Assembly (NCBI GenBank): GCA_043721755.1
Contig: JAYSQC010000294.1
Location: forward strand, 20,839-84,838
Direction: 5' to 3'
Length of the DNA stretch: 64,000 nt
DNA from: Schlesneria sp.
GTDB lineage: Bacteria; Planctomycetota; Planctomycetia; Planctomycetales; Planctomycetaceae
Each line of letters begins with the position of its first letter. The stretch's first letter is position 1. Position numbers and translations under genes: made by a program. This document shows, in pieces, positions 13,913-40,882 of the stretch. The notes below the pieces were generated by a model that was not told the DNA's origin, did no database searches, and saw nothing but the letters and a program-made list of their open reading frames with translations.

Positions 13913-13942
13913 TCCCGGTCAACTCCTCTACGGGCCTCCTTG

Positions 13943-15532
13943 ATGTTGCATTCCCCCGGTAGCGCCACGACTTCCTATGATCGCACCCCTTACAAGAGTC
14001 ATCCTTTTGGGCAGACCCATCCCGACCGACTGGCGGTGATTGCTACGCTGTTGGGAATGCAGCCGCCGCCGATCGAGACGGCGCGCGTGTTGGAACTCGG
14101 TTGTGCTAGCGGGGGCAATTTGTTGCCGATGGCGGAGCAGTTCCCGCAGGCACAGTTTCTCGGCGTCGATGCTTCGTCGCGACAGATCGAGGACGGAAAC
14201 CAGCTCCTGCGTGAGGCAGGGCTGACAAATGTCGAACTGCGGTTTCAAGACATCTTGGAGTTCCCACTCGACGAACCGCAGTTCGATTACATCCTTTGTC
14301 ACGGTGTTTACTCGTGGGTGCCGGACGCGGTGCAGCAAAAGATTCTGACGATCTGTTCGCGGAACCTCGCTCCGAATGGCGTGGCGTATATCAGTTACAA
14401 CACGTACCCCGGCTGGCGGATGCGGGGGATGATCCGCGACATCATGCGGTATCGTGCCCAGTTCTTTGAGGCTCCCGAAGAGAAGCTCAATCAGGCGCGG
14501 GGGCTGTTGACGTTCCTCAGTAACTCGGTGAAGTCTGAGAACAACCCGTATGGAATGATGCTCCGCAGCGAGCTCGAATCGATCGTGCATTCCGATGACT
14601 CGTACCTGTTGCACGAACACTTGGAGGACATCAACGAGCCGGTCTACTTTCACACTTTTGCCGAGCGTGCGAGCAGCGCCGGGTTGCAGTATTTGGGCGA
14701 GGCCGACTTCGGGGTGATGTCGGTCGAGAATTTCCCCGAACACATTCAGGGGATGTTACAGAGCGTGTCGCGGGATACGGTCGAGTTGGAGCAGTACATG
14801 GATTTTCTGCGGAACCGTGCGTTCCGGCAGACGCTGCTCTGTCACAAAGACATTCGGGTCGAGCGCACGCCTGTCCCACGGTCACTGCTCAGAACGCGGG
14901 TCGCTTCGTCGGGGCAGGCGGAGGGAACATCACTCGAACTGCACTCACCTGACCAAACTGTCTTCCGTCGCCGGAACGCCACGCTGCGAACCACCGACCC
15001 GGTTGTGAGAGCAGCGATGCTCCATCTGCGTCAGGTCTGGCCTGCATCCGTCCCATTCAACGAGCTGTCGTCCATCGGCCGCTCGATGGCGTCCGGTCAT
15101 CCCGTCGCGGTGGAGACTGACCTCATGAGCACCCCCAGCGAGCAACTGGCGTCGATGCTGCTCCGGTGTTTCGCGACCTCGATGGTCGATCTGCACACAG
15201 CCAACCGTCCGTTTATCAGCTCAGTGACTGAGCGACCGGTTGCATCCATCCTCGCGCGGGCCCAGTCGCAGCACACGTCTCAAGTAACGAACCTGTTGCA
15301 TGAACGCATCCCGCTCGACGACTTCCAGTGCCAGGTTCTGCGAGCCTGCGATGGCACACGCAATCGGGACGAACTCATCCAAACCGTCTGCGACAACGCC
15401 ACACGCGGAGACCTCGTGATCTTCAACGCGGGTAAGCGCCTCGTGGAAGGAGATGACCTTCACAAAGGCGTCGCCGACTTGGTCCCGTCGATCCTGCAAA
15501 GCCTCGCACGACAGGCACTACTCGTCGGTTGA
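13943..15532 (+). CDS. Class I SAM methyltransferase with a C-terminal methyltransferase-regulatory domain
   Basis: YDRTPYKSHPFGQTHPDRLAVIATLLG...RVLELGCASGGNLLPMAEQFPQAQFLGVDAS...FDYILCHGVYSWVP is the typical architecture of this family. Confidence 0.75.
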   Translation: MLHSPGSATTSYDRTPYKSHPFGQTHPDRLAVIATLLGMQPPPIETARVLELGCASGGNLLPMAEQFPQAQFLGVDASSRQIEDGNQLLREAGLTNVELRFQDILEFPLDEPQFDYILCHGVYSWVPDAVQQKILTICSRNLAPNGVAYISYNTYPGWRMRGMIRDIMRYRAQFFEAPEEKLNQARGLLTFLSNSVKSENNPYGMMLRSELESIVHSDDSYLLHEHLEDINEPVYFHTFAERASSAGLQYLGEADFGVMSVENFPEHIQGMLQSVSRDTVELEQYMDFLRNRAFRQTLLCHKDIRVERTPVPRSLLRTRVASSGQAEGTSLELHSPDQTVFRRRNATLRTTDPVVRAAMLHLRQVWPASVPFNELSSIGRSMASGHPVAVETDLMSTPSEQLASMLLRCFATSMVDLHTANRPFISSVTERPVASILARAQSQHTSQVTNLLHERIPLDDFQCQVLRACDGTRNRDELIQTVCDNATRGDLVIFNAGKRLVEGDDLHKGVADLVPSILQSLARQALLVG

Positions 15533-20400: not shown

Positions 20401-23400
20401 TTCGGATTCCACCTCCGAGAATTCCAACAAACTTCTTCGGTCAGATGGCAAGTGGATTCTCGATTCGGGCACCAAGTCTCAATCGACGAGCAGTGCTTTC
20501 GGAGCGTCCTATTCAGGGGCGGGCGGGGTTACGAGTACCGATCCCAGCGGCTCAATCTCGATCTCTTTCGCGGCCTACGGCGGAGACTCGGAAACGGAGA
20601 GTTCGTCGGAGTCACAGATCGTTGGCTCCAACGGAGAATGGCAATCGGGTGGAGGCACGAGGTCGCGCTCCGCAGGGACTGGTAGCGGCTCTTCGTACTC
20701 GGGCAAAGGATCCTATTCGCCCGGCGGTACCGGTGGAACTTCGATGTCCTTCAATATCGAGTTGAGTGGCGGCAGCACTCTCAACGAGACTTTCTCGGAG
20801 GGCGAATCCAATACCGGCACGGGGGGCTGGCAACTCGTGTCTGGTAGCAAGGGGACATCGAACACGAATGATTCCAACGTCGCCTATTCCGGTGCGGGTT
20901 CCTTCCCGATGGGGGCTGCTGGAGCAGGTTCGATCGTCTTCGATGGCACCGATAACCAAAGCAACTCCTTCAGCGAATCCCAACTCGTCGGGACGGGCGG
21001 GACTTGGAATCTGATGGGCGGAGGGAAATCCAACTCAACGTCTTCTGGCCACAATTTCGTGCTCTCGGGGACAGACACGACTTCCGGTGGAGGAATCTCG
21101 GTCACGACCAGCTTCGCCGCTCATGACATTTCCTCCAATTCCGAAAGCACCTCGGCCAAGGTTTCGAGTTCCCTCGGGATCGGCCCGAACACTTGGGGCG
21201 ACGAAACCGGCTCCAAATCTCAGTCGGATGATTCCGGATTCACATTTTCGGCTAAGGGGGGCGGAACGCAGTCGCTCGCGATCGCTGGCGGCACCATCAA
21301 TGCCGGAATCCTCATCGACATGAGTAGCACGCAAAGCTCGGTTCACTCGGAGAGCCACGATTTGACGGGCGCAGGCTGGCAACCCATCTCAGGGTCGAGG
21401 TCCGAATCGTCGAGTGAATCGTCGAAGATGCAAATGAACGGAACCGGGACGTATACAAGGGGGACCGTCAACGGAACGCTCAATCTGATGAAGATGGATA
21501 CGTCGTCCAACTCGTCGTTCTCGACGGTTGAGTCACTCGGTTCGACGGGAGCGTGGACATTTACTTCCGGCAATCGCAGTGCGGCATCAGACAATGATTT
21601 TCAGTTCACGTATGCTGGAAGTGGAACCTACACGTATCCCGTCGCCGGTGGTCAGGTGGATGGTGGTCTCACGGAATTTGGAAACGCCGACAATACCGAC
21701 AACCACTCCCAATCCGAGTCGATCAATGCGGCGGGAGATTGGCAATTTGACGTGGGGAGCAAATCTCACTCGGCGGGAAATTCGTCCACGTTCAGTTCAT
21801 CGGGGACGGGCACTTATTCATACGCGGTCACTGGAGGCAGCGTCTCCGGAACAATCAATGAAGCGAATTGGTCGACTTCATCGAATAATGAAACGGAGTT
21901 TAATACTCGCGGTTCGATCGGAGGTTGGAGTTCGCTCGGGACAAAAACGAGCGGGACGGCGGGAGGTTCCACACGAGACTTTGTCGGTTCGGGCAGTTAC
22001 TCCATCAACATCCCCGATCCCACTGACGCGAAAAAGAGTGCGGGAAGTGTGTCAGGGAAAATTGATGAGGGCGGCAGTACGAACTCCAACTCCTCCGAAA
22101 GCTTGGGATGGTCGCTCAGTGCCGGTAATGGCTGGCAGCAAGTTTCGGGTTCACGTTCCCATTCCAATGGAAATAGTTCCAACAGCAAGTCTTCCGGATC
22201 GGGAAGCTACTCGTACACCGATTTGGAGAATGCCAACGGCATCTATCGCAGCGTCTCGCACAGTGGCAAAATCGAGGAAGACGCGTCCAGCGACTCCGGC
22301 AGCTCCGCTTCCGACGCCCTGATGTTTTCGACCGCTGGTGTCTGGGTGCGAACGTCCGGGGGGACATCCAGTTGGAATAGTTCACATCAATCATCAAATT
22401 CCTCGGGAACGGGCAAATACACGTTCAATGTCGGTGGAACATCGGCCAGCCCGGACTACAGGAAACTGAGCGGAGATGTCACCGAGAGCCGTTCGAGCCT
22501 CGACGATCAGAGTTATTCGTTAAGCACGACGTTCACGCCGTTCGGCACCTTTGTGACAACCGGCTCGAAGTCGTCCACCGGAAACTGGAGTGACGACAGC
22601 TCCCTCACTGGTAAGGGATCGTACAGCCGCTCCGTCACAGGCGGCTCCGTCACAGGCACGATCACCAGCCACAACCTCTCACGGGGACAGAGTTCAAATT
22701 CCACGGCCGCTTGGGGCGTCGATGCCTTCGGCGGGTGGGTGTTGCTGAGTGGCGTTGCGAGCCAGGCGTCTGACAGCACGTCCAACGAGGCTTGGAACGG
22801 AACCGGAACGTACTCCACATCCAACTCGGTGACAGACCCCGCCACGGGTAAAACCCTGTCGTCGCAGTCGATGAGTGGAACCGTGACCGACACAGGTTGT
22901 GAAGTATATGACTCCGGTGGCAGCAGTTCCGCCTCTAAAGTGAACTCCAGCGGTGAATGGGAACAGACGTTCGGCTATGCGTCGTCCAGCAAGCGTTCCA
23001 AGAACAACTCAACGATGACAGGCAGCGGAACGTATTCCAACAACGCGTGGGGGGACACGACTCGCAGTGTCTCCGGCACGTTGTCGGAGAACTACAACTC
23101 GTCCGTCGAGTCTGAAAACAGTGAATCGTGGGTCTTTATGAAGGCGGCGTTTGCCAGTGACATGGTTCAGGTGTCCGGTACTCGGAAGCTGATTACCAGC
23201 AGCGGCGGGAGCTTCACCAGTGACGGGAGCGGGACGTACAGCCACGGTCAGGTGCAAAATGGCAAGGTGACTCGCGACTTCAGTACTCGTTCGGGATCGC
23301 ATGGGGAGAGCAAGGTCGAGAGCTTTAGCGGGGGCGGCTGGACGCTCACGTGGTCGGGGAGCGATTCCAGCAGCCAGTCGTCGGACAACTCGTACTCGGG

Positions 23401-27165: not shown

Positions 27166-27681
27166 ATGACAGACGAAGAAAAAGAGCTTGCGCTTTCACT
27201 TTCTGCCGACGAAATAACCGAGGCCGACTTTTTGCGGATTCTACAAATCGGTCGTGCGGATGTACGCCAGCTAACCTTGCGATTTCTTGAGGAGTCGCTG
27301 GCAACATTGGATCCTGAAGGTGTCGAGTGCGCATTGAACGTTGGTTTTGTGTTCGGCTTCGACACTGAGCATCTCGATGTATTGAGTGCGCTGTCAGATT
27401 CTGAGTGGCATTTCCGTCACGAAGATGTTGTCGAGGCGTTAAGTGATTTACAGTCGCCCCGTACAGTAGATACGTTGTTCAGAGCTGCATTACACCCACA
27501 TGGCTATCTTGATTATGACGAAAGTCGTTCGTTATCAATAAAAGCAATTTGGGCAATCAGCTGTGTTGCAACCCCTTCTGCAATTGAGGCGCTTCACAAA
27601 CTGGCTGCTTCCGATATTGTGCGTGTAGCTGAAGAAGCAAAGCGACATTTGGAGCAGGCCAAAGGAGACGGGACTCTTTGA
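27166..27681 (+). CDS. HEAT-repeat-like protein (immunity-like)
   Basis: The 171-aa protein looks all-helical and has HEAT-like segments (VVEALSDLQSPRTVDTLFRAAL; AIEALHKLAASDIVRVAEEAKRHL). It sits between two toxin modules. Confidence 0.45.
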   Translation: MTDEEKELALSLSADEITEADFLRILQIGRADVRQLTLRFLEESLATLDPEGVECALNVGFVFGFDTEHLDVLSALSDSEWHFRHEDVVEALSDLQSPRTVDTLFRAALHPHGYLDYDESRSLSIKAIWAISCVATPSAIEALHKLAASDIVRVAEEAKRHLEQAKGDGTL

Positions 27682-28931
27682 ATCGCTTAAAAGGGCAACA
27701 CTACAGGAGCCGAAGCCGCTCCCGAAGTTGGTTGGCATCGACTGTTGGTTTGCTCTCGTTGCTGATTGCGGGGGCGTGCTTATGGTGTGCTTTGCCGGGA
27801 TCAGGGCGGGTGGATGCCGTCACCACGCCGTCTGAAGTTCGGCAATACGAGACCAAACGCATCTCACGGATCGTCCCGTTCGACTGGGTGCTGGCGGGAA
27901 ACCCGGAAGGGGAGCGTGATCTTCAGTTTGGCGAGGTCATCCATCCTAAGCAGTGGCGACTGCTGAAACTCGTCGCACCGAAAAAGGGTGGCGGCGAGGC
28001 CGATGTGGACATGGCTCGGCCGCTGACGTGGCTCTATTCGCAGAAGCAGGCCGGTGTGACTGTGCCTGATGAGGCCATCGCGGAAGATGAGGACGACGAC
28101 GACTCACTCATCGCGGTCGATGAAGCACAGCTCGCGGCATTCGATCCACGGCAACTCGTCGGCCGCACGATTTACATCTCAGTCCCCGAATGCGGGATCG
28201 ACGGTCACGCGAAGGTGCTGGCGGTTGAGGACTGCCCGAACCTCAAACCGCGACCTGGACTGGAGTATCAACTCGTCACGGCGACGTTCAAACATCGCGG
28301 GGCGAAAGTCGTCGATGTCCATGTCGCGGGGCTGTCAGCTCCGATCGGCTCGACACCCAATCATCCGTTCTGGTCCGAGGACAAACAGCAATTCGTCCGC
28401 GCCGACACCCTGCAACCGGGCGAACACCTGCGCCAAGCCGACGGCTCACTGACCACCGTCACCGCCGTCATTCCCCGCCCCGGTACCCACAACGTCTACA
28501 ACCTCGAAGTCCACCTCGATCACGTCTACCACGTCGCCAACAACGGCGTGTTGGTCCATAATGGGTCCGCGTGGTGGTGTTACCAAAATCGCGTCGCAGA
28601 GACTTTTGGTTTTACGACCGGTCGAGCTTCAACAGAATTCGTCGGTCAGCTGAAGCCCAAAAGATTCGCCGATGGAGTTTCATCTGACATCACTCACGCG
28701 ATGGAGGCCAAACACATCCATAATTGGAGCCGATCGCCATACAATCCAGCGAACATTCACACCACTGTTGGTGCGCAAAGGCAATTTGGAATGGTTTCTC
28801 AAATGAAAGATCTATCGAACGGATTTCCCAAAGTAACCTATTACACAAATCATTCAGGGATGGCTAATCACCTTCGTGATTTGGCGAGTCGCGCAAATCT
28901 CAGAAATGTTTCAGTTGAATTCCACCCCTAA
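27678..28931 (+). CDS. Orphan TM + HINT-C + alternative toxin tip cassette (PD-(D/E)xK-like)
   Basis: About 880 nt are near-identical to 25090-25985 of the giant gene (WLASTVGLLSLLIAG...NGVLVHNGS). A different 122-aa tail follows, with KRFADGVSSDITHAMEAKH (D...E-x-K). The only start in the track is TTG, so independent translation is uncertain. Confidence 0.65.
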   Translation: MNRLKGQHYRSRSRSRSWLASTVGLLSLLIAGACLWCALPGSGRVDAVTTPSEVRQYETKRISRIVPFDWVLAGNPEGERDLQFGEVIHPKQWRLLKLVAPKKGGGEADVDMARPLTWLYSQKQAGVTVPDEAIAEDEDDDDSLIAVDEAQLAAFDPRQLVGRTIYISVPECGIDGHAKVLAVEDCPNLKPRPGLEYQLVTATFKHRGAKVVDVHVAGLSAPIGSTPNHPFWSEDKQQFVRADTLQPGEHLRQADGSLTTVTAVIPRPGTHNVYNLEVHLDHVYHVANNGVLVHNGSAWWCYQNRVAETFGFTTGRASTEFVGQLKPKRFADGVSSDITHAMEAKHIHNWSRSPYNPANIHTTVGAQRQFGMVSQMKDLSNGFPKVTYYTNHSGMANHLRDLASRANLRNVSVEFHP

Positions 28932-29502: not shown

Positions 29503-31449
29503 CTACGATTCGGCGAGTTCGAGGTAGGGGTCGAGGCCGAGGGAGTGGCACATTTTGGTGCGGGACTTTTCTTGTTGGAGTTGTTGTTTGCGGTGCTTGA
29601 GGTCGCGGGCTTCGACTGTGCGTTGCGTGCGGTGGAAGGTGCGGAGCCAACGGCGGGGGAGTTCGCCTTGGGAGTTGGGGCGGGCTTGAGCTTGGAGGCG
29701 TTTGAGGTGGGCCGGTTTGAGACAGCGGAACAACTCGTCTTCGAGAGAGAGCCAGAACTGGAATGAGCCGGGGTCGCCTTGCCGGGCGGCGCGGCCGACC
29801 AATTGGCGGTCGATACGGCGGCTGGAGTGCATTTCGGTGGCGATGACGTGCAGTCCGCCATTGGCTCTCACGTCTGCGTGCAGGTGAATGTCGGTGCCTC
29901 GTCCGGCCATGTTCGTCGCGATGGTGACTCGTCCCGGCTGACCGGCTCCCGCCACGATCGCGGCTTCCTGTTCGTGGAACAGGGCGTTGAGAATGTGGCA
30001 GTCGATGCCGAGTTCCTTCAGGCTCTGACCCAACGATTCTGAAGCATGAACGGAAGGGGTGCCGATCAGGATGGCTCGACCTGCGTGATGCAGGCGTTCG
30101 ATCTCGGGGATCAGCGCGGTGCGTTTGGCGGCCTGCGTGGCAAAGACGCGGGGCGAGAGACCGCGTCGGATGCAGGGGCGATGCGTCGGGATGACCGTCG
30201 TTTCCGAGTGGTAGGTTTTTTGGAACTCGCGCCGCGCTGGTAGGCCCGTGCCGGTCATCCCGGCCAGATGCTCGTACCGGCGAAAGAACGTCTGCACGGT
30301 GACGCGAGCCGCTTCGCCCGTTTCATCGGTGATCGGCACGCTCTCCTTCGACTCGACCGCCTGATGGAGTCCCGCCTGCCATTTGCGTCCGTCGAGCGTG
30401 CGTCCGGTCCCTTCATCGACGATGGCGATCTCATCGTCGGCGTTGACGACGTAGTCGCGGCCGCGTTGGAACGCGATCTGTGCCCGCAGCGCCTGCTCGA
30501 CGTAGGTGTAAAGCTTCTCCGTTTCAAAGCCACTGAGTAACGACGGCTTGCGGGCGAGGACGATTTTATGAGTTCCTCGATTGGTCAATTCGATGCTCCG
30601 CTGCGCGGGATCGAACTGATAATCGTGACCCGGTTTTAACTGCCGCGAGACCTCTCCACCCCACTTCAAGAGCGCCGTCGTCGCGTCCGAATTCTTGAGA
30701 TTGAGGCCGATAATGAGCGGTGTTCCGGCGTCGTCGATCAACACGCTGTCGGCTTCGTCGATGAGGGCAAAGTAGTGGCCGCGCTGGACCGGTCCCTGCG
30801 GATCGGGAACGTCGTGTGTGAGGAGTGACGGCCGGGGCGGTTCATCCAGTTTCGAGCCGACTTTCAAACGGTCACGCAGGAAATCGAAGCCGATCTCACG
30901 GCTGGTGGCGTACGTGATGTCCCGCCAATACGCGTGCCGCCGTCCTTCCGGTTCGCTCTCAGACAACACACAGCCGACCGTCAGCCCGAGCCGCTCGTAG
31001 ACTGGCCCCATCTGAGCGCAGTCGCGTTCGGCGAGATAGTCGTTGACGGTGACGACATGGCAGCCGCGTCCCGGCAATGCGCGGAGGAATGTGGGAAGGG
31101 TGGCGGTCAGTGTCTTGCCCTCACCTGTCTGCATTTCGGCCAGCCCCCCTTCAAACAGGGCGATGCCGCCCATGATCTGCACGGGGTAGTGTTGCTGGCC
31201 GAGCACTCGTCGCGAGGACTCACGCACCAGCGCATACGCTTCGGGGAGGAGTGACTTCAACGAAGTTCCCGACTTCGCTAGCCAGCGGACTTCGTTCGAC
31301 CGGCTCCGCAATTCCTCGTCGCTGAAATTGGCCAGCGATTCGGACAGCGTGATGACTTGCGAAGCCAGCCCCCGCCAGCGCGAAACTCGCGCCGCCATCG
31401 GCCGTCCGCCAGTCTTGATCCAGTGCCAGAGGGGATTGAGGAGGGACAT
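29503..31449 (-). CDS. Truncated SecA paralog (SecA2-like ATPase, 648 aa)
   Basis: ATG at 31449. SecA motifs are present: QIMGGIALFEGGLAEMQTGEGKTLTATLP, VVTVNDYLAERD, LIDEADSVLIDDAGTPLII, a PPXD-like VDEGTGRTLDGRKWQAGLHQAVESKE, LAGMTGT, MAGRGTDI and RIDRQLVGRAARQGDPG. It lacks the HWD/CTD part of a housekeeping SecA of about 900 aa. Confidence 0.8.
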   Translation of the reverse strand: MSLLNPLWHWIKTGGRPMAARVSRWRGLASQVITLSESLANFSDEELRSRSNEVRWLAKSGTSLKSLLPEAYALVRESSRRVLGQQHYPVQIMGGIALFEGGLAEMQTGEGKTLTATLPTFLRALPGRGCHVVTVNDYLAERDCAQMGPVYERLGLTVGCVLSESEPEGRRHAYWRDITYATSREIGFDFLRDRLKVGSKLDEPPRPSLLTHDVPDPQGPVQRGHYFALIDEADSVLIDDAGTPLIIGLNLKNSDATTALLKWGGEVSRQLKPGHDYQFDPAQRSIELTNRGTHKIVLARKPSLLSGFETEKLYTYVEQALRAQIAFQRGRDYVVNADDEIAIVDEGTGRTLDGRKWQAGLHQAVESKESVPITDETGEAARVTVQTFFRRYEHLAGMTGTGLPARREFQKTYHSETTVIPTHRPCIRRGLSPRVFATQAAKRTALIPEIERLHHAGRAILIGTPSVHASESLGQSLKELGIDCHILNALFHEQEAAIVAGAGQPGRVTIATNMAGRGTDIHLHADVRANGGLHVIATEMHSSRRIDRQLVGRAARQGDPGSFQFWLSLEDELFRCLKPAHLKRLQAQARPNSQGELPRRWLRTFHRTQRTVEARDLKHRKQQLQQEKSRTKMCHSLGLDPYLELAES

Positions 31450-31499
31450 GGGGGAGGGGCTTGGGGAGTCGGGAATGGGGGGACCAAGGAGCCACGGCT

Positions 31500-31529
31500 G
31501 AAGTCCGGCTTTCGGAAAAGGCGGACTTC
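31500..31529. repeat. REP-like palindrome copy (GAAGTCCGGCTTTCGGAAAAGGCGGACTTC)
   Basis: An imperfect copy of the 15628-15657 element, in the intergenic region between the GAF-HlyD and SecA2-like genes. Confidence 0.45.
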
Positions 31530-31547
31530 TCCACCACCGCACGCTCC

Positions 31548-33653
31548 TTACCACCATAGATATTTTTGGGCGAATTCGATCACGTCGCCGAAGAGGACAT
31601 CGCCGAGACAGGAGGTGCCGCAGCCGATGCGGGCGCGGACTTCGGCTCCGATAGCGCGGACAGGGAGCCGAGTCTTATCGAGCGTGGCCCGGGCTTCGAT
31701 GACGCTGCCTTGTGCTTCGGCGGTGACGGTGCGCGTGGCCAGCGAGTTCAAGTTGGCGAAGTAACTTGCCTCGGATTGTGTGAGCAGTCGGTACTCGATC
31801 GGGAGCTGTTGGAAGGGCGGGTTGAGGGTGGAAGGTCGAGGGTTGAGGGTTGAAGCAGAAGCAGAAGAATGTTCTTGCGTGGAGGCTGGCGCTGGTCGCT
31901 CGACTTTTGTCTCTTGGCTCACAGCAGCCAGTCGCTGCTGTTCGACCAAGATTCGTCCGAGTCGATGCTCGGCCACTTCCAGTTCGAGTTGCCAGTCACC
32001 GGTTTCATCCATCACTTGCAGCAACAAGTCACCCCGTTTGACGGGTCGGTTGAGCAACAGTTGCTGGGCTTGAAACGTCGTCACCACACCGGCCAGCGGT
32101 GCCCGCACCGTCAACCGGGCGAGACGATCCTTGAGCACGGTCGCTTGTTGGGCTGCTCCTTCCACTTCGACCTTGGTTTCCACCGCCTTGGCTTGCAGCT
32201 TGAGTTCTTCATCGCGGTTCCCTTGCCGCGCGACATCATCCCGTTGCGCGATCAGGGTCGAGACCAGCTTGCGCTTTTCATGTAGTTGGTTTTCGACTGT
32301 CACCAATTCGGCGGACAACTCGTCGCTGCGAAGCTGCAAGAGGACTTGGCCCGCTTCGACCCGTTCGCCCCCCTGCACGAGCAGCTCGACCACTTGACCA
32401 TCCCACGGCGCGAAGACCTCGCGCTGGATGACGGGCATCAGGCGACCGGTGGCATCGACGCGATAAGGCCAGGGCACGAGGACCAAGGCCGCACTGACGA
32501 CGATCAGCAGCGCGAGACCCGCCGCCGCGAGAGCCAAGCGCCGGCCACGCAGCCACTCCACGAACCGGCCAATGGCTCGCCACAGCGGGAGCAGAAAGAT
32601 CGCGCTGTGCGTCTTGGCATTGAAGACCGCCGCCGCGATGTGATCGACGGCCGGATCGAGTGTACTCAGCAGTTGAGGCGACGGTGTGCTGCTCTGCATC
32701 TGCTCGATGACCAGTGCTCCCAGCGAGCGGCGCGGTTCGCGCACCGGCTTCGCATGGGCCGAAGTCTCTTCGGGCTTGATGAGTCGTTCTGGTTCGAGCA
32801 GCGGCACCAGGATGAGAAATCGCGCCCCACTTTCTTGGATGAACTCGGCCAGCGGCTGTTCGAGTTGCGGAGGCAGGTTGTCGAACGCACCGTCGTAGCG
32901 CAGCGGCTCACCCGCCGCGATGACCTGTCCGGCCAGAGTTCTCATCGTGCGGATCAGGTTGCCACGCGGATGAACCGACTCTTGACCGCTCACCGCCGTC
33001 ACCACGCTCTTCCGTCCGCGACGCAGCACCAAACTGACCCGATCCACGCCGAACAACAGCCGTCCGTCGTTGACCGCCACGCCCGCCACTTCGTTCACAT
33101 CCAGCGACCGTTGCAGTTGGTGGATGAAACTCAACAAGGCCCGCGCATCGACCGGTCGCGAAACGGGCTGTTGAGGCTCTGCTCCGCTCAGAGAGACCAG
33201 CGGTGGGTGAGGTGCCTGTGCCTGCGGAGCAAGCGTTCCTGCTCGTAACCTCTGGCCCAACTCGACTCCTCGTTGCGCCAGATATTGCAACTGGCCGTCA
33301 CGCTGCTGGGATGGCAACTCCGATTGCTGAGCGATCAGCATCACGCCCTGTTTGTCGCCGGCCCGAAAGGGGCTGAACAACAGCGTCACTTGGCGCTCCC
33401 GAGGAACATCGACCAGAGTCGAAGTCGCGATGGCCAAAGGGCGTCCAGCCTTGAGAGCCTCCGACATTCCGGTGGCCAACAGCGTTCGCACCGATTCAAA
33501 CTCGGCAAGGCCGAGGCGATCCAAGTTGTCACCGGAGATAGGAACCAATTGGTTCGACTCAGCCAGCCAAATGCCGCCGCCGAGAGCTTGAAGCTCAAGA
33601 ACGACGAGCTTTAGGAACTCGGTCCCAGTTCGGAGTTGAACTTCGTCGGGCAT
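31548..33653 (-). CDS. Tandem GAF-like domains + TM helix + HlyD-type periplasmic adaptor
   Basis: ATG at 33653 (MPDEVQLRTGTEFLKL...). There are two GAF-like blocks, a TM helix (LALAAAGLALLIVVSAALVLVPW), then a lipoyl-like/coiled-coil adaptor (APWDGQVVELLVQGGERVEAGQVLLQL...APLAGVVTTF). The 879-aa track ORF would overlap the upstream gene by about 460 nt. Confidence 0.7.
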   Translation of the reverse strand: MPDEVQLRTGTEFLKLVVLELQALGGGIWLAESNQLVPISGDNLDRLGLAEFESVRTLLATGMSEALKAGRPLAIATSTLVDVPRERQVTLLFSPFRAGDKQGVMLIAQQSELPSQQRDGQLQYLAQRGVELGQRLRAGTLAPQAQAPHPPLVSLSGAEPQQPVSRPVDARALLSFIHQLQRSLDVNEVAGVAVNDGRLLFGVDRVSLVLRRGRKSVVTAVSGQESVHPRGNLIRTMRTLAGQVIAAGEPLRYDGAFDNLPPQLEQPLAEFIQESGARFLILVPLLEPERLIKPEETSAHAKPVREPRRSLGALVIEQMQSSTPSPQLLSTLDPAVDHIAAAVFNAKTHSAIFLLPLWRAIGRFVEWLRGRRLALAAAGLALLIVVSAALVLVPWPYRVDATGRLMPVIQREVFAPWDGQVVELLVQGGERVEAGQVLLQLRSDELSAELVTVENQLHEKRKLVSTLIAQRDDVARQGNRDEELKLQAKAVETKVEVEGAAQQATVLKDRLARLTVRAPLAGVVTTFQAQQLLLNRPVKRGDLLLQVMDETGDWQLELEVAEHRLGRILVEQQRLAAVSQETKVERPAPASTQEHSSASASTLNPRPSTLNPPFQQLPIEYRLLTQSEASYFANLNSLATRTVTAEAQGSVIEARATLDKTRLPVRAIGAEVRARIGCGTSCLGDVLFGDVIEFAQKYLWW

Positions 33654-33727: not shown

Positions 33728-35953
33728 TCACATTCGGAAGTGGAACGTCCGACGGATGTATCTCCACGCCCAACCGAAGACGGAGCGTTTCGCGGCAATG
33801 AAACGGGCGTTGCCGCGCAGGTTGGGCTTGAGCAGATCGGGCGCTGCGCTGAGGTGAACCGTCGCCTGATAAGCGGCGTCTTCGAGTTGCTCCCTCCCTT
33901 CTTGATCCGTCACGGTGGCGAGCGATCCGCCATGTTTGACCGACAGCGATTCGGGGGCAAAGTCGGATTGCGCCGTCGCAATCTGTGAGATCGTTCCGCG
34001 AAAGACGCGATCGGGCAGATGATCGAACTTCAAACCGACCGGCATTCCCAGCGTCACATCGTGGCGGTCGGCCTGATCGAGATAGAGGAGCGCTTGCATC
34101 GTGCTGGCCGGGGCAATGCTGAGTAAATGCGTCCGTTCGTCGAAGATGCCACCGGCGTTCTTCGCATCCAGCGGCGTGCCGGTCCAACCGACGAGCCGCG
34201 TGCGGAGTTGTTCCAGCTTCGGTGCCGGAATTCTCGGCGGCGCGACGATGGTCCCCGCGCAGGGAGCGACAATTTGCAGATGCTTCCGTTGCGCTGCCAC
34301 CTCGGCCAATTGCTCGTTGACGGAACTCAGGCTCTGCTCGGCCATCGCACGACTGCCGGGATCATCCGTCACTTTGGCGAGATGGAGCGCCTTGCGTTGG
34401 ACCTCATGTGCCACGAGCAGTTGCCGAGAGCGGTCCTCCAGTTTGGGATCAAACAGTTCAGCGAGGAGTTCTCCCGCCGAAACCAGATCACCGGGCTTTA
34501 CGTGAAGTGCCACCAATTCACCGGGCACCTTGGTCAGCACATGCCGCACGCCGTGCGGTTCGATTACGAACGCTGCCGAACCGAACCACGGAACCGGAAC
34601 CGTTCCCAATGCCGCAATCACGGCCAGCAAGACCGTCGCAGTGAGCGCCACACGCCACTTCTTGATCGGATGTTGCCGCGGTACCGCGAACAGTTGATAT
34701 GACTTCATTCCCAATCTCCACACCACACCACACACCGACACGGCCGCCAGAGTTTGACCGACGCTCTGCAACCCATATGGCTTGAGGACCGTATAGAGGA
34801 ACGTCAGGATGCCGAACAGCACGACCCAACCGTAGATCGTGGAAGCCAAGGCGAACAGTGCGAACCAGTGGAGACCGGTCTGCGGCATGAACGGATCGGG
34901 CCGAGGTTCCACGCCGAGACAGACTCGCGCCACCGTCTCTTGAAACAGTTTGTCCGCCTTCTGCCGCAGGTTAGGGATTTCGAGGAAGTCGCCCAGCATG
35001 TAGTAGCCATCGAGTCGCATGAGCGGATTCGCGTTGAAGATCACGGTCGTGGCGGCGGTCACAAAAAACAGGTTCAAGCAGAGGTAATGCAGCAGTCCCG
35101 GTGACGTGAGCCACCAGACGAAGATGGCCGCCGCTGAGAGGACGATTTCAATGATCATTCCCGCCGCGCCGATCAGAATGCGTTTCCATTTGTTCTTGAG
35201 CATCCAAGAGTCCGACACGTCGCAATACAGACACGGACTGCCGACGAGCAGCATCACGCCCATCTCATGACACTCGCTGCCGAACATCTTGCATGACAGC
35301 CCGTGACCGAACTCGTGAATGATCTTCGCCCCGGCCAGCGTCAGCCACAGAAAGATCAGGTTGGGCCAGCCGAAGAACTGGTTGAACGCGGGCAGCCGAC
35401 TCTGAAACGTCTGAAACTGCGTCGCCAACAACGCCCACGAGGCCAGCACGAAGAGACTCGCCAAGAACGCCGTCACGGGATGAAACAGCCATCGCGTCCA
35501 CGGCAGCATTCGCGCCAGCAACGCATCCGGATCCCAGCCCGGCAGTCGCAACGACAGGATGTTGGTTAATACGCTCCAAATTTGTTGTCGCCGTTTCTTC
35601 CGACGCTGTTCGATCCGCGCCATCGCCTGCCCCGGACGAACACCATACGCGAGACCTTTCTGATGCAGGTCGGCCACCAACTGCTGCACATCGGTCAGAG
35701 TGGGGCTGAGTGCGGGGAACTCGCGGATCAATTCGTCGCGGATCGACTCCAGATGCCGCTGCCCGTCGAGCATCTGCCACACGCGATACTGATCGCACCG
35801 CAGCATGTGGTACGTGAGGCCCACCGCATCCTTGACCATGAAGTGCGCGACTCCGCGAAACTCCATCCGCTTAACAATCAGATCGCCCCGCCCGCGCAGC
35901 GGCACCGGGCGCTGCGACGAAGGTGTCTGTTCGGAAGGGAGTGCGAGAGACAT
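33728..35953 (-). CDS. PqqD/RRE-like domain + M50 (site-2 protease) membrane domain + HlyD-type adaptor fusion
   Basis: The N-terminus is YRVWQMLDGQRHLESIRDELIREFPA..LTDVQQLVADLHQKGL (PqqD-like pattern). HEFGHG (HExxH) and NANPLMRLDGYY (S2P NxxPxxxLDG) sit within a multi-TM region. The C-terminus has VPGELVALHVKPGDLVSAGELLAEL, a coiled coil and a barrel. Confidence 0.75.
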   Translation of the reverse strand: MSLALPSEQTPSSQRPVPLRGRGDLIVKRMEFRGVAHFMVKDAVGLTYHMLRCDQYRVWQMLDGQRHLESIRDELIREFPALSPTLTDVQQLVADLHQKGLAYGVRPGQAMARIEQRRKKRRQQIWSVLTNILSLRLPGWDPDALLARMLPWTRWLFHPVTAFLASLFVLASWALLATQFQTFQSRLPAFNQFFGWPNLIFLWLTLAGAKIIHEFGHGLSCKMFGSECHEMGVMLLVGSPCLYCDVSDSWMLKNKWKRILIGAAGMIIEIVLSAAAIFVWWLTSPGLLHYLCLNLFFVTAATTVIFNANPLMRLDGYYMLGDFLEIPNLRQKADKLFQETVARVCLGVEPRPDPFMPQTGLHWFALFALASTIYGWVVLFGILTFLYTVLKPYGLQSVGQTLAAVSVCGVVWRLGMKSYQLFAVPRQHPIKKWRVALTATVLLAVIAALGTVPVPWFGSAAFVIEPHGVRHVLTKVPGELVALHVKPGDLVSAGELLAELFDPKLEDRSRQLLVAHEVQRKALHLAKVTDDPGSRAMAEQSLSSVNEQLAEVAAQRKHLQIVAPCAGTIVAPPRIPAPKLEQLRTRLVGWTGTPLDAKNAGGIFDERTHLLSIAPASTMQALLYLDQADRHDVTLGMPVGLKFDHLPDRVFRGTISQIATAQSDFAPESLSVKHGGSLATVTDQEGREQLEDAAYQATVHLSAAPDLLKPNLRGNARFIAAKRSVFGWAWRYIRRTFHFRM

Positions 35954-36086: not shown

Positions 36087-37010
36087 CTATTCCGCAAGTT
36101 CAATCACCATCTCGGCCATCAATCCGCCACGCAGGATGTTGTCGCGATTCTCGACTTCCGCCCAGACACGTGTCTCGCGGGTCACGGGATCGACGGTGAC
36201 ATCGACGAACGTCACTCGCCCCACGAACTCTTCGGCGGCGGCGGGAGGACTGAAGTCAGGATCGTTCAGCTTCACACGCACCTTGAGCTTCGGCTTGATC
36301 GCTCGCACATCGGACAGAGCCACACGCCCCTCGATCCGCACGCGGTCGATATTGACCAGCTCCAAAATCGGGTCACCCTGTCGAACGGCTTCGCCGGGAT
36401 GCTTATAGACCCGTGTCACGACGCCCGAGAACGGAGCGATCACCGAATGCGTGGCCAGTTCGGCACGAGCTTGGTCCGCCGTCAGCTTGTTCAACGCGAG
36501 TTCGTTCTCGGCCTGCTCGATCGCCAATACTGTCTTATCGGCCGCGAGCCTTAGCTTTTCGATCTCGAGCTGCGCGACCGCCACCACGGTTTGTTTTCCC
36601 TCCCCCTTCGACTTCGCCGCCGCTTTCTCATTGGCTTCGACGTTCTTCTGATATTCGACCTCGGCCAAGTCGCGGGCTTTCTGGTTGAACCGGACATCGA
36701 CATCGTTCGACGCCTTCTTCTCGGCCACCGCCAAATTGGCGCGAGCCACTTCATCGGCGATCAGCACCACTTGCTGCCTAGCCTCGACCGCGTCTCCTTC
36801 GTGAAATTCGACCGACCTCAACACCCCCGACCGATCGCAGGCTAGAGTCACCTGTCGAATCAACACGATCCGACATTCGGGCACTCGAACATTCTTCGAT
36901 GCCGTCGGCGTGGACGGTTTTTCAGCGGCTGAGGCCACCGAAGTCATGACGACGAACGTGAGTGGCAACAGTAGGGACGGCTTCCGAATGGGCATGGATG
37001 GAGACTTCAA
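36087..37010 (-). CDS. HlyD/MFP-family periplasmic adaptor with a signal peptide
   Basis: The signal-like N-terminus is SLLLPLTFVVMTSVASA. Lipoyl half-motifs are GVLRSVEFHEGDAVEARQQVVLI and APFSGVVTRVYKHPGEAVRQGDPILEL, with a long coiled coil between them. Confidence 0.7.
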   Translation of the reverse strand: MKSPSMPIRKPSLLLPLTFVVMTSVASAAEKPSTPTASKNVRVPECRIVLIRQVTLACDRSGVLRSVEFHEGDAVEARQQVVLIADEVARANLAVAEKKASNDVDVRFNQKARDLAEVEYQKNVEANEKAAAKSKGEGKQTVVAVAQLEIEKLRLAADKTVLAIEQAENELALNKLTADQARAELATHSVIAPFSGVVTRVYKHPGEAVRQGDPILELVNIDRVRIEGRVALSDVRAIKPKLKVRVKLNDPDFSPPAAAEEFVGRVTFVDVTVDPVTRETRVWAEVENRDNILRGGLMAEMVIELAE

Positions 37011-37296: not shown

Positions 37297-39432
37297 ATGA
37301 TCAGTCGCCCGAAGACTGTTGTTTTATCGGCTGAGTCCCGTGAGCCGGATGGACCCTGTTGTGGTGCGCTGATACATCACGCGCCATCGAAATCGTGCCT
37401 CATTCGCTGCGGTTCAGCAGCCGTTGTTTCATTCCGCTTCCACTCCCATTTCGTTCCAAGATCAGCGACCGACATCGTGCGTGCCGCCGCAAACAGAGTG
37501 CGCTGGGCGAGGGGTCACATCGACTTCTGGGGAGTGGTCCGCGCGGTATGCTTGGGCGCTTGCCTATCGTTGGCCTGTGGGCTGTTTTGCGGGTGTGCCG
37601 CCTGGAAATCGCGTGAGCCTCGGACAGAGAATCCCGTCGCAAACCATTACCTGCGCATCGCCGAGCAGATCGAATATCCCGATGCGGAATCGGGACGTGT
37701 GACGGCTCAACCCAGCCTCGGTCAAACACGACCGCTCGTGGAACCGAGGCCCGAGGAACGGTGGCCCATTTCGCTGATGGAAGTGATTCAACTCGGACTC
37801 CAGAACAGCGATCTCATCCGACAGAACGCGCAGTTCCTCTCGCCGGGGAATCCGTTGCTGGCCAATGCCGACGCCGTCCCCTCGATCTACGACATCGAGA
37901 TTCAGAACAATGGCGTGCTGTTCGGTACGCGCGGGATTCACGCGGCGCTGTCCGATTTCGATCCGCGCCTCATCACCAACATGAAGTGGGGACGGGATGA
38001 AAACGCGCAAAACAACGGGTTGCTTTCGGGAGGCATTCCGGCCGGTGGCATCCTGAATGAAGACAACGCCCTGTTTCAGTCGCGGCTCGAACAGCAACTA
38101 CTCACCGGCGGAACGTTCGCGGTCAGTCACGACTGGAACTATGCGCTCAACAATCAGCCGAACCGTTTGTTTCCGTCAGCCTACACCGGAACACTGGGCG
38201 CTGAATTGCGCCAACCTCTCTGGTCCGGGGCCGGTCAGGAATTCAACGCGATCGCCGGTCCGTCTTCGCAACGGGCGCGCGGCTTCAGTTACGTAAATCA
38301 AGGGATCGTCATCGCGCAGATCAACGGTCGCCTGTCACAGATCGACTTTGAAGAGAATCTCCAAAACTTCGTGCGTGAAATCGGCGACCTGTATTGGGAT
38401 CTCCATCAGGCATGGCAGGAGTACATCGCCGAGTCAGCCACTGCCGAAGCCTCTCAGAAACTGTGGGATGAGGTGCAAGCCAAGTTTCATGCCGAACTGA
38501 TCGGTGGGGCTGAAGAAGCCCAGGCGGAGGACACTTTTCATGAAGCGGTCGCACGCAGAGACTTGGCGCTCGCGACGTTCTTTCAGACCGAATCCAGACT
38601 GCGGCGACTCCTTGGCCTGCCCATCGATGACGACAAACTCCTCTTTCCGAGCGATGTCCCGATCAAACAGGAAGTGACTCAAGATCGGGCAACATGCCTC
38701 TTCGAGGCTTATCTCAACCGACTCGAACTGCGCCGACAGAAGACAAACATTCAGAGCCTCGAACTGCAACTGGCCGCCGCCCGCAACTTGGCCCACCCGC
38801 GACTCGATGTCGTGGCTGGATACCGGCTGAATGGATTCGGTGATGAACTGATCGGGGATCACACCGCTGATGGCGTGTCGAAACAAGGGTTTCAGAGTGC
38901 GTACGGAGCACTGATGCGAGCCAATCAAACGAGTTGGGATTTGGGGGTGGAATACTCGATCCCGCTCTGGATGCGCTCCGAACGGGCACAGGTCCGGCAA
39001 CTGGAACTGCGACTCCTCAAAGCACGCACCGTACTGGCGGCACAAGAAGACGAAATCGCCCACGAATTGCACGCGGTCTTTCAGACGATGCAACGCTGGC
39101 TGCGATCCGCGCAAACCAACAAACGCCGCTACCTCGCCGCCAACCGCCGCGTCGAAGCCGCCTCGTCCGAATACCACGACGCCGGACGAACGGGCATCGA
39201 CCCGCTGCTGCGCGCCGAAATCAGCCTGACTCAAGCCCAAGTCGCCTACCACCGCAGCGTCGCCGAATACAACAAGTCCCTCCGCGAACTCCTCTACCGC
39301 ACCGGCCGCCTCCTCCACGAAGAAGGCATCACCCTCCTCGACCCCACCGGCCAGCCAACCCCAGCACAACAGCCGCCTGAATTCCCCTCAACCGCCCCCA
39401 TGCTCCGCAACGAATCCACCCGCGACGAATAG
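37297..39432 (+). CDS. TolC-like outer membrane efflux protein
   Basis: It is divergent from the adaptor operon. There is a Cys-rich lipobox-like leader (LACGLFCGCAAW). Two OEP-type repeats are present (ISLMEVIQLGLQNSDLIRQ..., CLFEAYLNRLELRRQKTNIQSLELQLAAARN...). The start codon is uncertain. Confidence 0.7.
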   Translation: MISRPKTVVLSAESREPDGPCCGALIHHAPSKSCLIRCGSAAVVSFRFHSHFVPRSATDIVRAAANRVRWARGHIDFWGVVRAVCLGACLSLACGLFCGCAAWKSREPRTENPVANHYLRIAEQIEYPDAESGRVTAQPSLGQTRPLVEPRPEERWPISLMEVIQLGLQNSDLIRQNAQFLSPGNPLLANADAVPSIYDIEIQNNGVLFGTRGIHAALSDFDPRLITNMKWGRDENAQNNGLLSGGIPAGGILNEDNALFQSRLEQQLLTGGTFAVSHDWNYALNNQPNRLFPSAYTGTLGAELRQPLWSGAGQEFNAIAGPSSQRARGFSYVNQGIVIAQINGRLSQIDFEENLQNFVREIGDLYWDLHQAWQEYIAESATAEASQKLWDEVQAKFHAELIGGAEEAQAEDTFHEAVARRDLALATFFQTESRLRRLLGLPIDDDKLLFPSDVPIKQEVTQDRATCLFEAYLNRLELRRQKTNIQSLELQLAAARNLAHPRLDVVAGYRLNGFGDELIGDHTADGVSKQGFQSAYGALMRANQTSWDLGVEYSIPLWMRSERAQVRQLELRLLKARTVLAAQEDEIAHELHAVFQTMQRWLRSAQTNKRRYLAANRRVEAASSEYHDAGRTGIDPLLRAEISLTQAQVAYHRSVAEYNKSLRELLYRTGRLLHEEGITLLDPTGQPTPAQQPPEFPSTAPMLRNESTRDE

Positions 39433-40282: not shown

Positions 40283-40882
40283 TCATGAGCCTTCGTGGGT
40301 ACGTTTGCCCTGATGAGTTGCCCAACGCGAGATCAGTTCGCCTCGCGTTGACACTGACAGCGTCTTGTAGATCGCCTTCGCATGGTCATGCACGGTAGCG
40401 ATGGTGATGCCCAGACGCGCTGCGACTTCCTTTTCAATGAGCCCTTGCACAAATAGGTCGAACACTCTGCGCTGGCCAGGTGTAAGGGGCGGAGCCTTCG
40501 ATTCAATGTCGCCACTTGCTGCGACTGGAAAGCTGGCCGAGCGAGTTGAGTCATCGGTACTCACGGTCTCTCTGACGGCTTCCACAATACCGGTGCAGAC
40601 CTTGAGCAGATACGGTCTGATGAGCACTTCAGTTCCACCACCGAATGCCTCGTCGCAATGAAGCAGACGCCCATTGAGGCGCGTACCGTTCCGACTCCCA
40701 AGGTCGCGAATTCGACAGCCATTCTCTGTCTTCAACAGGAGTGCGTGCTTCCGTGACACAAGGAGATCCGGGAGCCTGATCCCGCAGTCGTCATCACGGC
40801 CGATGACCGTCTCCGCAGCATCCAATTCCTGAATGCGATCGAACATCGATTCGTGACGAATCACGACATACAACTGGCCCAT
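40283..40882 (-). CDS. FHA-domain / LuxR-type HTH transcription regulator
   Basis: The FHA part is ETVIGRDDDCGIRLPDLLVSRKHALLL...IRDLGSRNGTRLNG. The LuxR HTH part is LTPGQRRVFDLFVQGLIEKEVAARLGITIATVHDHAKAIYKTLSVSTRGEL. Confidence 0.8.
   Translation of the reverse strand: MGQLYVVIRHESMFDRIQELDAAETVIGRDDDCGIRLPDLLVSRKHALLLKTENGCRIRDLGSRNGTRLNGRLLHCDEAFGGGTEVLIRPYLLKVCTGIVEAVRETVSTDDSTRSASFPVAASGDIESKAPPLTPGQRRVFDLFVQGLIEKEVAARLGITIATVHDHAKAIYKTLSVSTRGELISRWATHQGKRTHEGS

Follow-up and report, generated by a model that had tools for sequence, protein, structure and literature searches.

The window analyzed here is a stretch of 64,000 nucleotides of a Schlesneria sp. contig (JAYSQC010000294.1), in which the gene at 33728..35953 on the minus strand (gene B) encodes a protein of 741 amino acids (aa) comprising a PqqD-like recognition element of the kind known from peptides that are synthesized by ribosomes and modified post-translationally (RiPP recognition element; RRE), a membrane zinc protease of the M50 family and a periplasmic adaptor of the HlyD type. 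We propose that gene B is probably the central inner-membrane subunit of a TolC-dependent machine, similar to a type 1 secretion system, that works without an ABC transporter and appears dedicated to the export of proteins bearing an N-terminal leader. In this leader, a basic stretch precedes [hydrophobic]-x-x-L-E-(P/x)-R-x-L-L-(S/D)-(A/G); it is the 'LEPR-XLL' domain of NCBIfam and the planctomycete motif 'RRLxxExLExRxLLA'. The proposal is built on the folds of the domains, the conservation of their motifs, the membrane topology, the operon membership of gene B and the genomic linkage of the system to leader-bearing proteins, all of which were observed. A narrower version, to which we give an even chance, is that the RRE fold, so far known only for reading leaders in RiPP biosynthetic enzymes, was recruited as the receptor of the signal in a protein-secretion machine and that RRE-M50-HlyD, HlyD and TolC proteins, with or without GAF-HlyD and SecA2, make up the missing exporter for this leader.

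A reading of the window made from the sequence alone (the sequence-only reading) had claimed a three-domain polypeptide at 33728-35953. Gene B is indeed a single open reading frame (ORF) with exactly these coordinates and with Pfam and NCBIfam matches, and all of the peptide strings that had been cited were found in its translation, with VWQMLDGQRHLESIRDELIREFPA...LTDVQQLVADLHQKGL at residues 58-101, HEFGHG at residues 213-218 and NANPLMRLDGYY at residues 307-318. It is thus confirmed that one chain holds the RRE/PqqD fold together with the membrane zinc protease and the periplasmic adaptor. The sequence-only reading had missed that gene B belongs to a huge conserved family with thousands of clusters and is no local oddity. 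A sequence search detected more than 4,352 matches among 5.8 billion proteins, of which the best 120 were nearly all of 733-747 aa and spanned the entire query; the few named entries among these 120 were all of Planctomycetota, with Schlesneria being the closest (66-68% identity). When residues 1-450 were compared with 1.84 billion cluster representatives (clusters at 50% identity), 3,154 clusters were matched at E<=1e-30 and 7,414 at E<=1e-10. The best 150 of these clusters were mostly of 720-760 aa, indicating that the adaptor part is present in them as well. The RRE-M50-HlyD fusion is therefore an old and widespread architecture and no local novelty. The proteobacterial relatives of gene B are labeled by the NCBI pipeline as 'PqqD family protein' or 'PqqD family peptide modification chaperone.'

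The PqqD/RRE-like pattern noticed in the first ~110 aa was borne out by both the Pfam PqqD score and a Foldseek search with an AlphaFold2 model. The winged-helix domain covers residues 19-104 (35642..35899, minus strand) and is predicted to be cytoplasmic. Pfam PqqD (PF05402) matched residues 57-101 with 25.0 bits in the whole protein and 28.2 bits in the isolated domain against a cut-off of 23.4; the margin over the gathering threshold is small in gene B alone, yet consistent family-wide, with the N-terminal domains of 21 of the 22 gene B homologues matching PF05402 at E<=0.01. In the AlphaFold2 model of residues 1-135 (22 homologues in the alignment; mean predicted local distance difference test score [pLDDT] of 83), strands 26-32, 35-42 and 47-52 are followed by helices 53-61, 68-78 and 86-98, a beta-beta-beta-alpha-alpha-alpha order that is the order of RRE domains and gives a winged-helix fold. 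The comparison of this model with the Protein Data Bank (PDB) by Foldseek had been set beforehand as a refuting test, and its first 12 matches were all RRE domains. The top match was TbiB1 with a bound lasso leader (5v1v; template modeling [TM] score of 0.72 on the target, probability 1.0), and TigE, the nuclear magnetic resonance structure of PqqD, a lasso B1 protein with its leader, ThcOx and the sactisynthase CteB were matched as well (PDB entries of the best RRE matches: 5v1v, 8vpo, 5sxy, 6jx3, 5lq4 and 5why), while the scores collapsed beyond the RREs. A PDB profile search with the alignment of the RRE retrieved PqqD (3g2b) marginally, with an E value of 0.016, beside two de novo designed proteins. 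The RRE is kept in every branch of the family including that of Escherichia coli. R22, G34 and D42 do not vary, even in the relatives from E. coli and Alphaproteobacteria, and R22 and D42 are the only invariant polar residues of this domain across the whole superfamily.

The M50 domain of the site-2-protease type follows at residues ~142-450 (34604..35530, minus strand), with seven predicted transmembrane helices and a beta-hairpin at residues 231-244 (PF02163, NCBIfam and the structural model). Such a domain with HEFGHG and the second motif had been expected, and both the Pfam score above the cut-off and the invariant catalytic residues agree with the expectation: Peptidase_M50 (PF02163) matched residues 205-280 with 29.2 bits (cut-off 27.2). 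The zinc-binding and catalytic HExxH motif is H213-E-F-G-H217 (35303..35317, minus strand), and the NxxPxxxxDG motif, N307...D315-G316 (35006..35035, minus strand), holds the third zinc ligand of M50 proteases. Across 35 homologues sharing 50-96% identity with the query, no variation was seen at H213, E214, H217, N307, N309, P310, L311, D315 or G316, and the E. coli relative carries HELGH at the zinc motif. The intact catalytic residues suggest that gene B is an active protease. A PDB sequence search with the M50 region (residues 140-430) gave no match. Among the NCBIfam models, the best match was the daptide intramembrane metalloprotease NF041824 (an equivalog model; residues 90-416, 181.2 bits, E of 3e-53), which stays below the cut-off of 300 bits, and the YydH/LiaK epipeptide protease NF058609 scored 40.8 bits against a cut-off of 225; weak PqqD and adaptor matches were also found. 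We additionally observed a Cys/His/Asp cluster at residues 221-248 (35209..35293, minus strand), in which C221, C228, H229, C244, D245 and D248 are invariant and C241 is conserved in at least 90% of the homologues. The cluster surrounds the predicted beta-hairpin after the HExxH helix, where it could bind a second metal or form a disulfide motif peculiar to this M50 subfamily.

The C-terminal ~300 aa had been read as a HlyD-type adaptor, and the profile and structure searches concur. Residues 451-741 (33728..34603, minus strand) comprise a barrel-sandwich, an alpha-hairpin (503-557) and a beta-barrel. Both HlyD_D23 (residues 469-570, 38.1 bits, cut-off 30) and HlyD_3 (residues 597-662, 35.9 bits, cut-off 22.2) of Pfam were matched above their cut-offs, and Foldseek retrieved MacA, EmrA, MexA, AcrA and ZneB at E values of 1e-12 to 1e-10. 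In the full-length model (pLDDT of 74.9), a basic linker helix (110-133) precedes seven long hydrophobic helices (159-178, 198-224, 255-282, 287-304, 361-393, 396-423 and 432-450), and the adaptor fold begins at residue 453. The model shows the parts expected of an adaptor, namely an anchor with its N-terminal side inside (432-450), a hairpin of two helices (503-529 and 532-557) and beta domains, and PRQHPIKKWR stands before the last transmembrane helix, a feature shared with ordinary HlyD anchors. With the N-terminus inside, 17 Lys and Arg residues fall in cytoplasmic segments and 4 outside, three of the latter in the first 40 residues of the periplasmic domain and one in the inter-helix loops. 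In the seven-helix topology, this difference indicates that the RRE and the active site are cytoplasmic and that the adaptor is periplasmic. Neither of the two refuting outcomes named in the sequence-only reading, concerning the fold and the topology, was obtained. Consistent with the topology that the sequence-only reading had put up for checking, helix prediction and the positive-inside count assign the RRE, H213-E-x-x-H217 and D315 to the cytoplasm and residues 451-741 to the periplasm; HExxH and NxxPxxxxDG sit at the cytoplasmic ends of the predicted helices 198-224 and 287-304, respectively.

Gene B lies in a minus-strand operon with the order A-B-C-D, alongside a divergent TolC gene (gene E). 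Gene A (36087..37010, minus strand), the first of the operon, encodes a small HlyD-type adaptor of 307 aa with an N-terminal signal or anchor (Pfam and NCBIfam), and its position directly upstream of B recurs in 56 of the 80 related planctomycete loci. Gene C (31548..33653, minus strand; 701 aa from the MPDEVQL start) encodes a GAF-like cytoplasmic region, a transmembrane segment and a HlyD adaptor (Pfam HlyD); the GAF-like region was recognized by alignment to an alphaproteobacterial orthologue in which Pfam detects GAF, and had no direct Pfam match. Gene D (29503..31557, minus strand; likely true start near 31449) encodes a secondary SecA-like ATPase (Pfam SecA_DEAD with 332 bits, SecA_PP_bind and P-loop_SecA) with a DEAD motor, a preprotein cross-linking domain and a second P-loop domain, and without the wing/scaffold domain. 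All of the NCBIfam SecA and SecA2 models scored below their cut-offs on gene D. Gene E (37297..39432, plus strand) encodes a TolC-family outer-membrane factor of 711 aa (Pfam OEP in two stretches; NCBIfam type_I_sec_TolC).

This co-located gene set is the secondary-SecA module of Kamneva, Poudel and Ward (2015; PMC4452313), who described a genomic module of secondary SecA_DEAD, Peptidase_M50/HlyD, HlyD and GAF-HlyD proteins (with or without OEP). The membership of gene B in a known SecA2/HlyD/TolC module had been overlooked in the sequence-only reading. Kamneva et al. proposed a type-1-like secretion in which SecA is the ATPase and the pore might be formed by the M50 protein, regarded the biological role as 'completely unknown,' and neither mentioned 'PqqD' nor named a substrate (PMC4452313). 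The system does not conform to canonical type 1 secretion, as no ABC transporter was found in the operon of the window or in the related operons inspected, and the conserved feature of its cargo is N-terminal, in contrast to the C-terminal secretion signal of the canonical route.

The strongest link to a cargo came from Proteobacteria. A tblastn search of gene B against 72,556 plasmids yielded 80 records (64-80 plasmids carry B), and we inspected the annotated context of ten operons in nine genera, namely Pontibrevibacter, Pseudohalocynthiibacter, Methylosinus, Mesorhizobium, Pseudosulfitobacter, Kosakonia, Escherichia (E. coli), Azospirillum and Burkholderia. In all ten, the system has a large or giant gene of 7 to 39 kb directly beside it (the one in Pseudohalocynthiibacter is unannotated in its record). 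Two layouts were recognized. In type I (Pontibrevibacter, Pseudohalocynthiibacter, Methylosinus, Mesorhizobium and Pseudosulfitobacter), the giant gene is followed by DUF3467 (or SapC), GAF-HlyD, RRE-M50-HlyD, the SecA paralogue, the small HlyD and sometimes TolC. In type II (IncF plasmids of E. coli and Citrobacter, Kosakonia, Azospirillum and Burkholderia), the order is the giant gene, TolC, a small HlyD, a mid-size HlyD and RRE-M50-HlyD, with neither SecA nor the GAF protein, so that the RRE is the only sizeable cytoplasmic domain encoded.

The N-termini of eight giant proteins were examined, and each has a basic stretch followed by the leader motif: DP-MEPRVLLS-ADP, DT-LEPRVLLN-ADV, EA-LEPRLLLS-ADF, WS-LEPRMLFD-GAI, FA-LESRQLFD-GAA, LA-LEPRVVYD-ASV and MA-LEPRFMFD-AAG, with the leader of the eighth, from Pseudosulfitobacter, being taken from its LEPR-XLL annotation. 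The invariant polar residues of the leader are Glu and Arg, and two of the giant upstream genes bear the PGAP name 'LEPR-XLL domain-containing protein.' In the reverse search, residues 1-200 of the giant protein from E. coli matched 112 plasmids. The DUF4347 domain alone occurs on Phaeobacter plasmids, which are not among the B-family records listed or tallied by genus, and the association was for this reason restricted to the matches including the leader residues. Such matches were found on 41 plasmids; in at least 36 of these, a B homologue is present on that replicon as well, typically at a distance of 14-25 kb; many plasmids in this set are near-identical, and at least nine genera contribute independently. 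As the plasmids with DUF4347 alone lie outside the listed B-family records, the system is tracked by the leader and not by the domain downstream of it.

Two observations on the proteobacterial systems are added here. The SecA-less system of E. coli (NZ_CP081687.1, 44.8-64.6 kb; our loci L090/L091) consists of a 4,460-aa protein with the leader LESRQLFD, TolC, two HlyD proteins and RRE-M50-HlyD. It occurs in 24 of 5,426 complete E. coli genomes, with 4 of 25 places being chromosomal and the rest on plasmids, and its hosts are IncF-type plasmids of E. coli, Citrobacter and Hafnia. Separately, DUF3467, a protein of ~100 aa with the core YANFCRV..TPEE..L(D/N)FG(L/I)N, is a recurrent extra component in Alphaproteobacteria and Planctomycetes (loci L081-L084 and L092; L002, L003, L010, L014, L022, L043, L070, L074, L079 and L080; one of these has a SapC-family protein instead), and may be a chaperone of the cargo. 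A 2026 preprint describes LEPRxLL domains on giant Chlorochromatium proteins beside a TolC and a SapC gene, and also describes a recently acquired secA, without connecting the leader proteins with the machine.

In the window, two proteins are candidate cargo. The first (17480..26377, plus strand; 2,965 aa) lies 3 kb from the operon and has a basic N-terminus, the leader LEQRCVLS (17615..17638), Big_9, PT-HINT and a C-terminal toxin module; its leader reads VPAMIEV-LEQRCVLS-AVG, 45 residues from the start, after RRERTRPRGRR. The second (12830..13912, plus strand; 360 aa) carries the leader MEVRVLMS (12923..12946), in the context PPVQA-MEVRVLMS-ATA, followed by DUF4114 and Big_5. In both, the core motif L/M-E-x-R-x-L-L/M-S stands 31-45 residues from the start after a basic stretch, and neither has a Sec-type hydrophobic core, which points to the need for a dedicated export route. 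Pfam gave no domain match for the planctomycete export motif in the proteins of the window. As to the first candidate, the protein is a polymorphic toxin in which PT-HINT occupies residues 2735-2834 and is followed by the C-terminal module. A second, shorter PT-HINT protein is encoded 3' of this gene (27678..28931, plus strand), and the GC content dips at 26-28 kb to 0.50 from about 0.59, as expected for a swapped toxin cassette.

The motif RRLxxExLExRxLLA was put forward in 2004 as a novel export signal of planctomycetes (Studholme et al., as cited in PMC8567305), and 52 Tuwongella immobilis proteins carry it, with many of these occurring in the envelope fraction (PMC8567305). In the searchable literature, we found no export machinery assigned to the LExRxLL motif. 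To survey planctomycetes, we used 80 related loci from species-representative genomes, all of Planctomycetota. The A-B pair forms the conserved core, and C, SecA2 and TolC were found within 10 kb in 24, 9 and 6 loci, respectively; DUF3467 adjoins B in at least ten. Leader proteins stand directly beside complete systems in L001 (Schlesneria), L032 and L036, in addition to the window. With a looser form of the motif and a required basic N-region (the strict form misses variants such as LESRILLC in L036), leader proteins occur at 5 per 213 kb near the SecA2-containing loci versus 6 per 1,117 kb elsewhere (binomial p=0.02). In this phylum the cargo genes are dispersed, which is as expected for a general pathway with many substrates, and the strong evidence for linkage is therefore that from the proteobacterial operons. 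Altogether, comparative genomics in both groups supports a suggestion made as a fallback in the sequence-only reading, namely that the substrate is the leader of the neighboring LExRxLLS proteins. No convincing small precursor ORF had been seen in the cluster, in agreement with our clustering of 6,804 small ORFs (25-160 aa, within ~5 kb of B) across the same 80 loci, in which DUF3467 was the only genuinely conserved small ORF. As the other clusters only reflected A, B, C or D read in antisense or off frame, the idea of a hidden precursor was dropped.

From these data we infer how the machine would work, including leader binding by the RRE, cleavage by the M50 domain and the route across the inner membrane. 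The cytoplasmic RRE would capture the leader as an added strand beside beta3 and alpha3, as with RiPP leaders, and present it to the M50 site at the cytoplasmic leaflet, ~110 residues downstream in the chain, where the leader would be removed. The SecA-like ATPase (gene D), in which the preprotein-binding domain is kept, may then feed the unfolded and often giant chain into the membrane assembly, and the HlyD-type parts of A, B and C would form a periplasmic duct to the TolC-like channel (gene E). The likely cargo in the window would include the 2,965-aa PT-HINT polymorphic toxin and the smaller Ig-like protein. The RRE is favored as the receptor because it is the only substantial cytoplasmic domain encoded in the type II operons and because no branch of the family has lost it. 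A pairing of R22 and D42 of the RRE with Glu and Arg of the leader is suggestive but speculative.

Several points weigh against this mechanism. The SecA-less operons encode no ATPase, which leaves the energy source and the inner-membrane pore unaccounted for. SpoIVFB acts on pro-sigmaK, and together with EpeP it offers a precedent by analogy only for the action of an M50 protease on a soluble N-terminal leader. In the full-length model, confidence in the M50 region is moderate (pLDDT of 45-85). Most of the planctomycete A-B pairs stand alone, with no SecA2, TolC or leader protein within 10 kb (SecA2 in 9 of 80), and the linkage in planctomycetes is weak, with p=0.08 when the window is excluded. 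NF012209 (LEPR-XLL; a 24-residue model with a cut-off of 17 bits) gave 11.3 bits for 12830..13912 and no match for the 2,965-aa protein, although the core motif is visible in both by eye and by regular expression. Finally, DUF3467 was sought in the 64-kb window with 14 query proteins and was not found.

The most serious alternative keeps the export of leader-bearing proteins and takes the role of receptor from the RRE: the preprotein-binding domain of SecA2 or the GAF-HlyD protein would read the leader, the RRE would dock a DUF3467/SapC-like partner or regulate the protease, and the M50 domain may mainly be a scaffold or pore. SecA2 still has its preprotein cross-linking domain, DUF3467 and SapC are recurrent small partners of the system, and a pore role of the M50 protein was suggested earlier (PMC4452313). 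Against this, the type II operons, which lack both SecA and the GAF protein, still have the RRE and the same leader, the invariant HExxH and Asp argue for retained proteolysis, and DUF3467 is missing from many loci, the window included. We consider this alternative to have something over a one-in-five claim on the data, behind the RRE as the leader receptor.

M50 proteases of the site-2 type have a classical role in signaling, in which they cleave membrane-tethered regulators. Gene B may likewise take part in regulated intramembrane proteolysis as RseP and SpoIVFB do, with the M50 domain cleaving a tethered regulator, the HlyD part acting as a sensor or tether, the RRE binding the substrate or the regulator, and the secretion genes being merely co-regulated. 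The GAF domain of gene C (by alignment) and an FHA-LuxR regulator nearby (40283..40882) fit such a role, but no conserved pair of an anti-sigma and an ECF sigma factor was found beside B in the loci examined, and a transport conduit is indicated both by the covalent fusion of the adaptor and by the other adaptors and TolC that constantly accompany B. We therefore regard signaling as improbable.

M50 proteases do act in RiPP pathways, and EpeP is thought to cleave and also export its peptide (PMC10885120). The coupled recognition, cleavage and export of a peptide that the sequence-only reading put forward stands as far as the domains, the topology and the idea of coupling are concerned, and its RiPP flavor fails: we found no modifying enzyme (no radical-SAM, YcaO, lanthionine synthetase or other tailoring enzyme in the window), no short precursor beside the RRE protein, and no score above the cut-offs of the daptide and epipeptide models. 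Least probable by a narrow step is thus a RiPP maturation and export system, in which the RRE would bind the leader of a small peptide encoded elsewhere, the M50 domain would remove it and HlyD/TolC would export the product; RiPP pathways are where the RRE fold is otherwise typically encountered, these pathways do use M50 proteases and the daptide protease is the best NCBIfam match of gene B, but the scores (181 of 300 bits; 41 of 225 for YydH/LiaK) fall far under the cut-offs, neither a tailoring enzyme in the window nor a conserved small ORF save DUF3467 was found, and the conserved neighbors in three groups at the level of phylum or class are HlyD, SecA2, TolC and the giant leader proteins.

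The remaining genes near the operon include the PT-HINT toxin cassette, the FHA-LuxR regulator, an M4 peptidase, a dienelactone hydrolase, nucleases, a methyltransferase-like gene and a TrwC relaxase. The regulator (minus strand; 199 aa, FHA and a LuxR-type helix-turn-helix domain) lies in an ORF-poor 2.2 kb between the TolC gene and the gene of the M4 (thermolysin-like) peptidase. The gene at 46524..48632 (plus strand; 702 aa) combines Endonuclease_NS, a non-specific DNA/RNA endonuclease domain, with a C-terminal trypsin-like protease in an unusual fusion, and stands beside an Exo_endo_phos protein and the M4 peptidase in a cluster of likely secreted degradative enzymes. A protein-lysine-methyltransferase-like gene (13940..15532, plus strand; Methyltransf, MethyTransf_Reg and PKMT_2nd) is located directly 3' of the gene of the small LExRxLMS protein. 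Rickettsial protein-lysine methyltransferases methylate a surface protein, and by analogy the enzyme in the window might modify exported cargo. The TrwC-type relaxase/helicase (3148..5817, minus strand; 889 aa) suggests that the window is on a plasmid or an integrative conjugative element, in keeping with the many copies of the system that are carried by proteobacterial plasmids.

Gene B is a member of a known family and module (PMC4452313), and the PqqD label is already in automatic annotation. In the searchable literature, the N-terminal domain was not explicitly recognized as an RRE fold, no substrate was linked to the RRE-M50-HlyD protein, and the machine was not connected with the LEPR-XLL/LExRxLL proteins; the association of the gene B system with leader-bearing giant proteins as cargo is new here. 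The architecture itself is ordinary, and the interest is in a lead that joins two observations of unknown function into one testable secretion model. In each planctomycete genome, dozens of surface proteins carry the LExRxLL(A/S) motif, which also occurs on some of the largest proteins known from bacteria. If the model is true, the exit route would be explained for the planctomycete surface proteins and for the giant proteins (up to more than 10,000 aa) of Proteobacteria and Chlorobi. There would be a distinct secretion pathway with a cleavable N-terminal signal, no ABC transporter and an intramembrane metalloprotease serving as the signal peptidase, and the RRE fold would extend beyond natural-product biosynthesis into a new leader/protease/adaptor logic of secretion. 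The model bears on the delivery of polymorphic toxins such as the PT-HINT protein in the window, and would offer a handle for secreting very large recombinant proteins. For experiments on the model itself, the rare version on E. coli IncF plasmids provides a tractable host.

Several known systems are close to that of gene B, among them the module of Kamneva et al. (2015). The gene set and domain contents of this module match those of the window, including SecA without SecA_SW, GAF-HlyD and the occasional TolC gene, and the present analysis adds to the earlier account the RRE fold, the topology and the link to the LEPR leader. The RiPP leader-recognition elements (PqqD, lasso B1/TbiB1 and the RRE of CteB) share the winged-helix fold with gene B at a probability of 1.0, with TM scores of 0.6-0.72 when normalized to the PDB target and 0.45-0.50 when normalized to the 135-residue query, albeit with an identity of only 16-20%. 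In contrast to these elements, the RRE of gene B is fused to a membrane protease and an adaptor, no RiPP enzyme or precursor is nearby, and its putative ligand is the leader of a secreted protein. Likewise, the RiPP-associated M50 proteases (the daptide protease NF041824, EpeP/YydH and TglG/TmoG) and gene B have in common an intramembrane protease with HExxH...D, while gene B differs in scoring below the family cut-offs, in its genomic context and in the extra C-terminal adaptor. The LEPR-XLL domain (NF012209, 'LEPR-8K') or RRLxxExLExRxLLA signal shares its core motif with both candidate cargo proteins of the window; the planctomycete variant usually lacks Pro, unlike the NCBIfam model, and scores below its cut-off.

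The peptidase-containing ABC transporters (PCATs), in which a C39 protease-ABC protein works with HlyD and TolC, carry out type 1 secretion of bacteriocins. Their logic is that of the system proposed here, in that a protease within the inner-membrane exporter reads and cuts an N-terminal leader, after which an adaptor/TolC duct conducts the cargo. Unlike PCATs, the gene B system has neither an ABC transporter nor a C39 protease, and recognition by the RRE and cleavage by the M50 domain are proposed to take their place; three different adaptors are present, the motor, where there is one, is a SecA paralogue, and the candidate cargo is not a peptide but a chain thousands of residues long.

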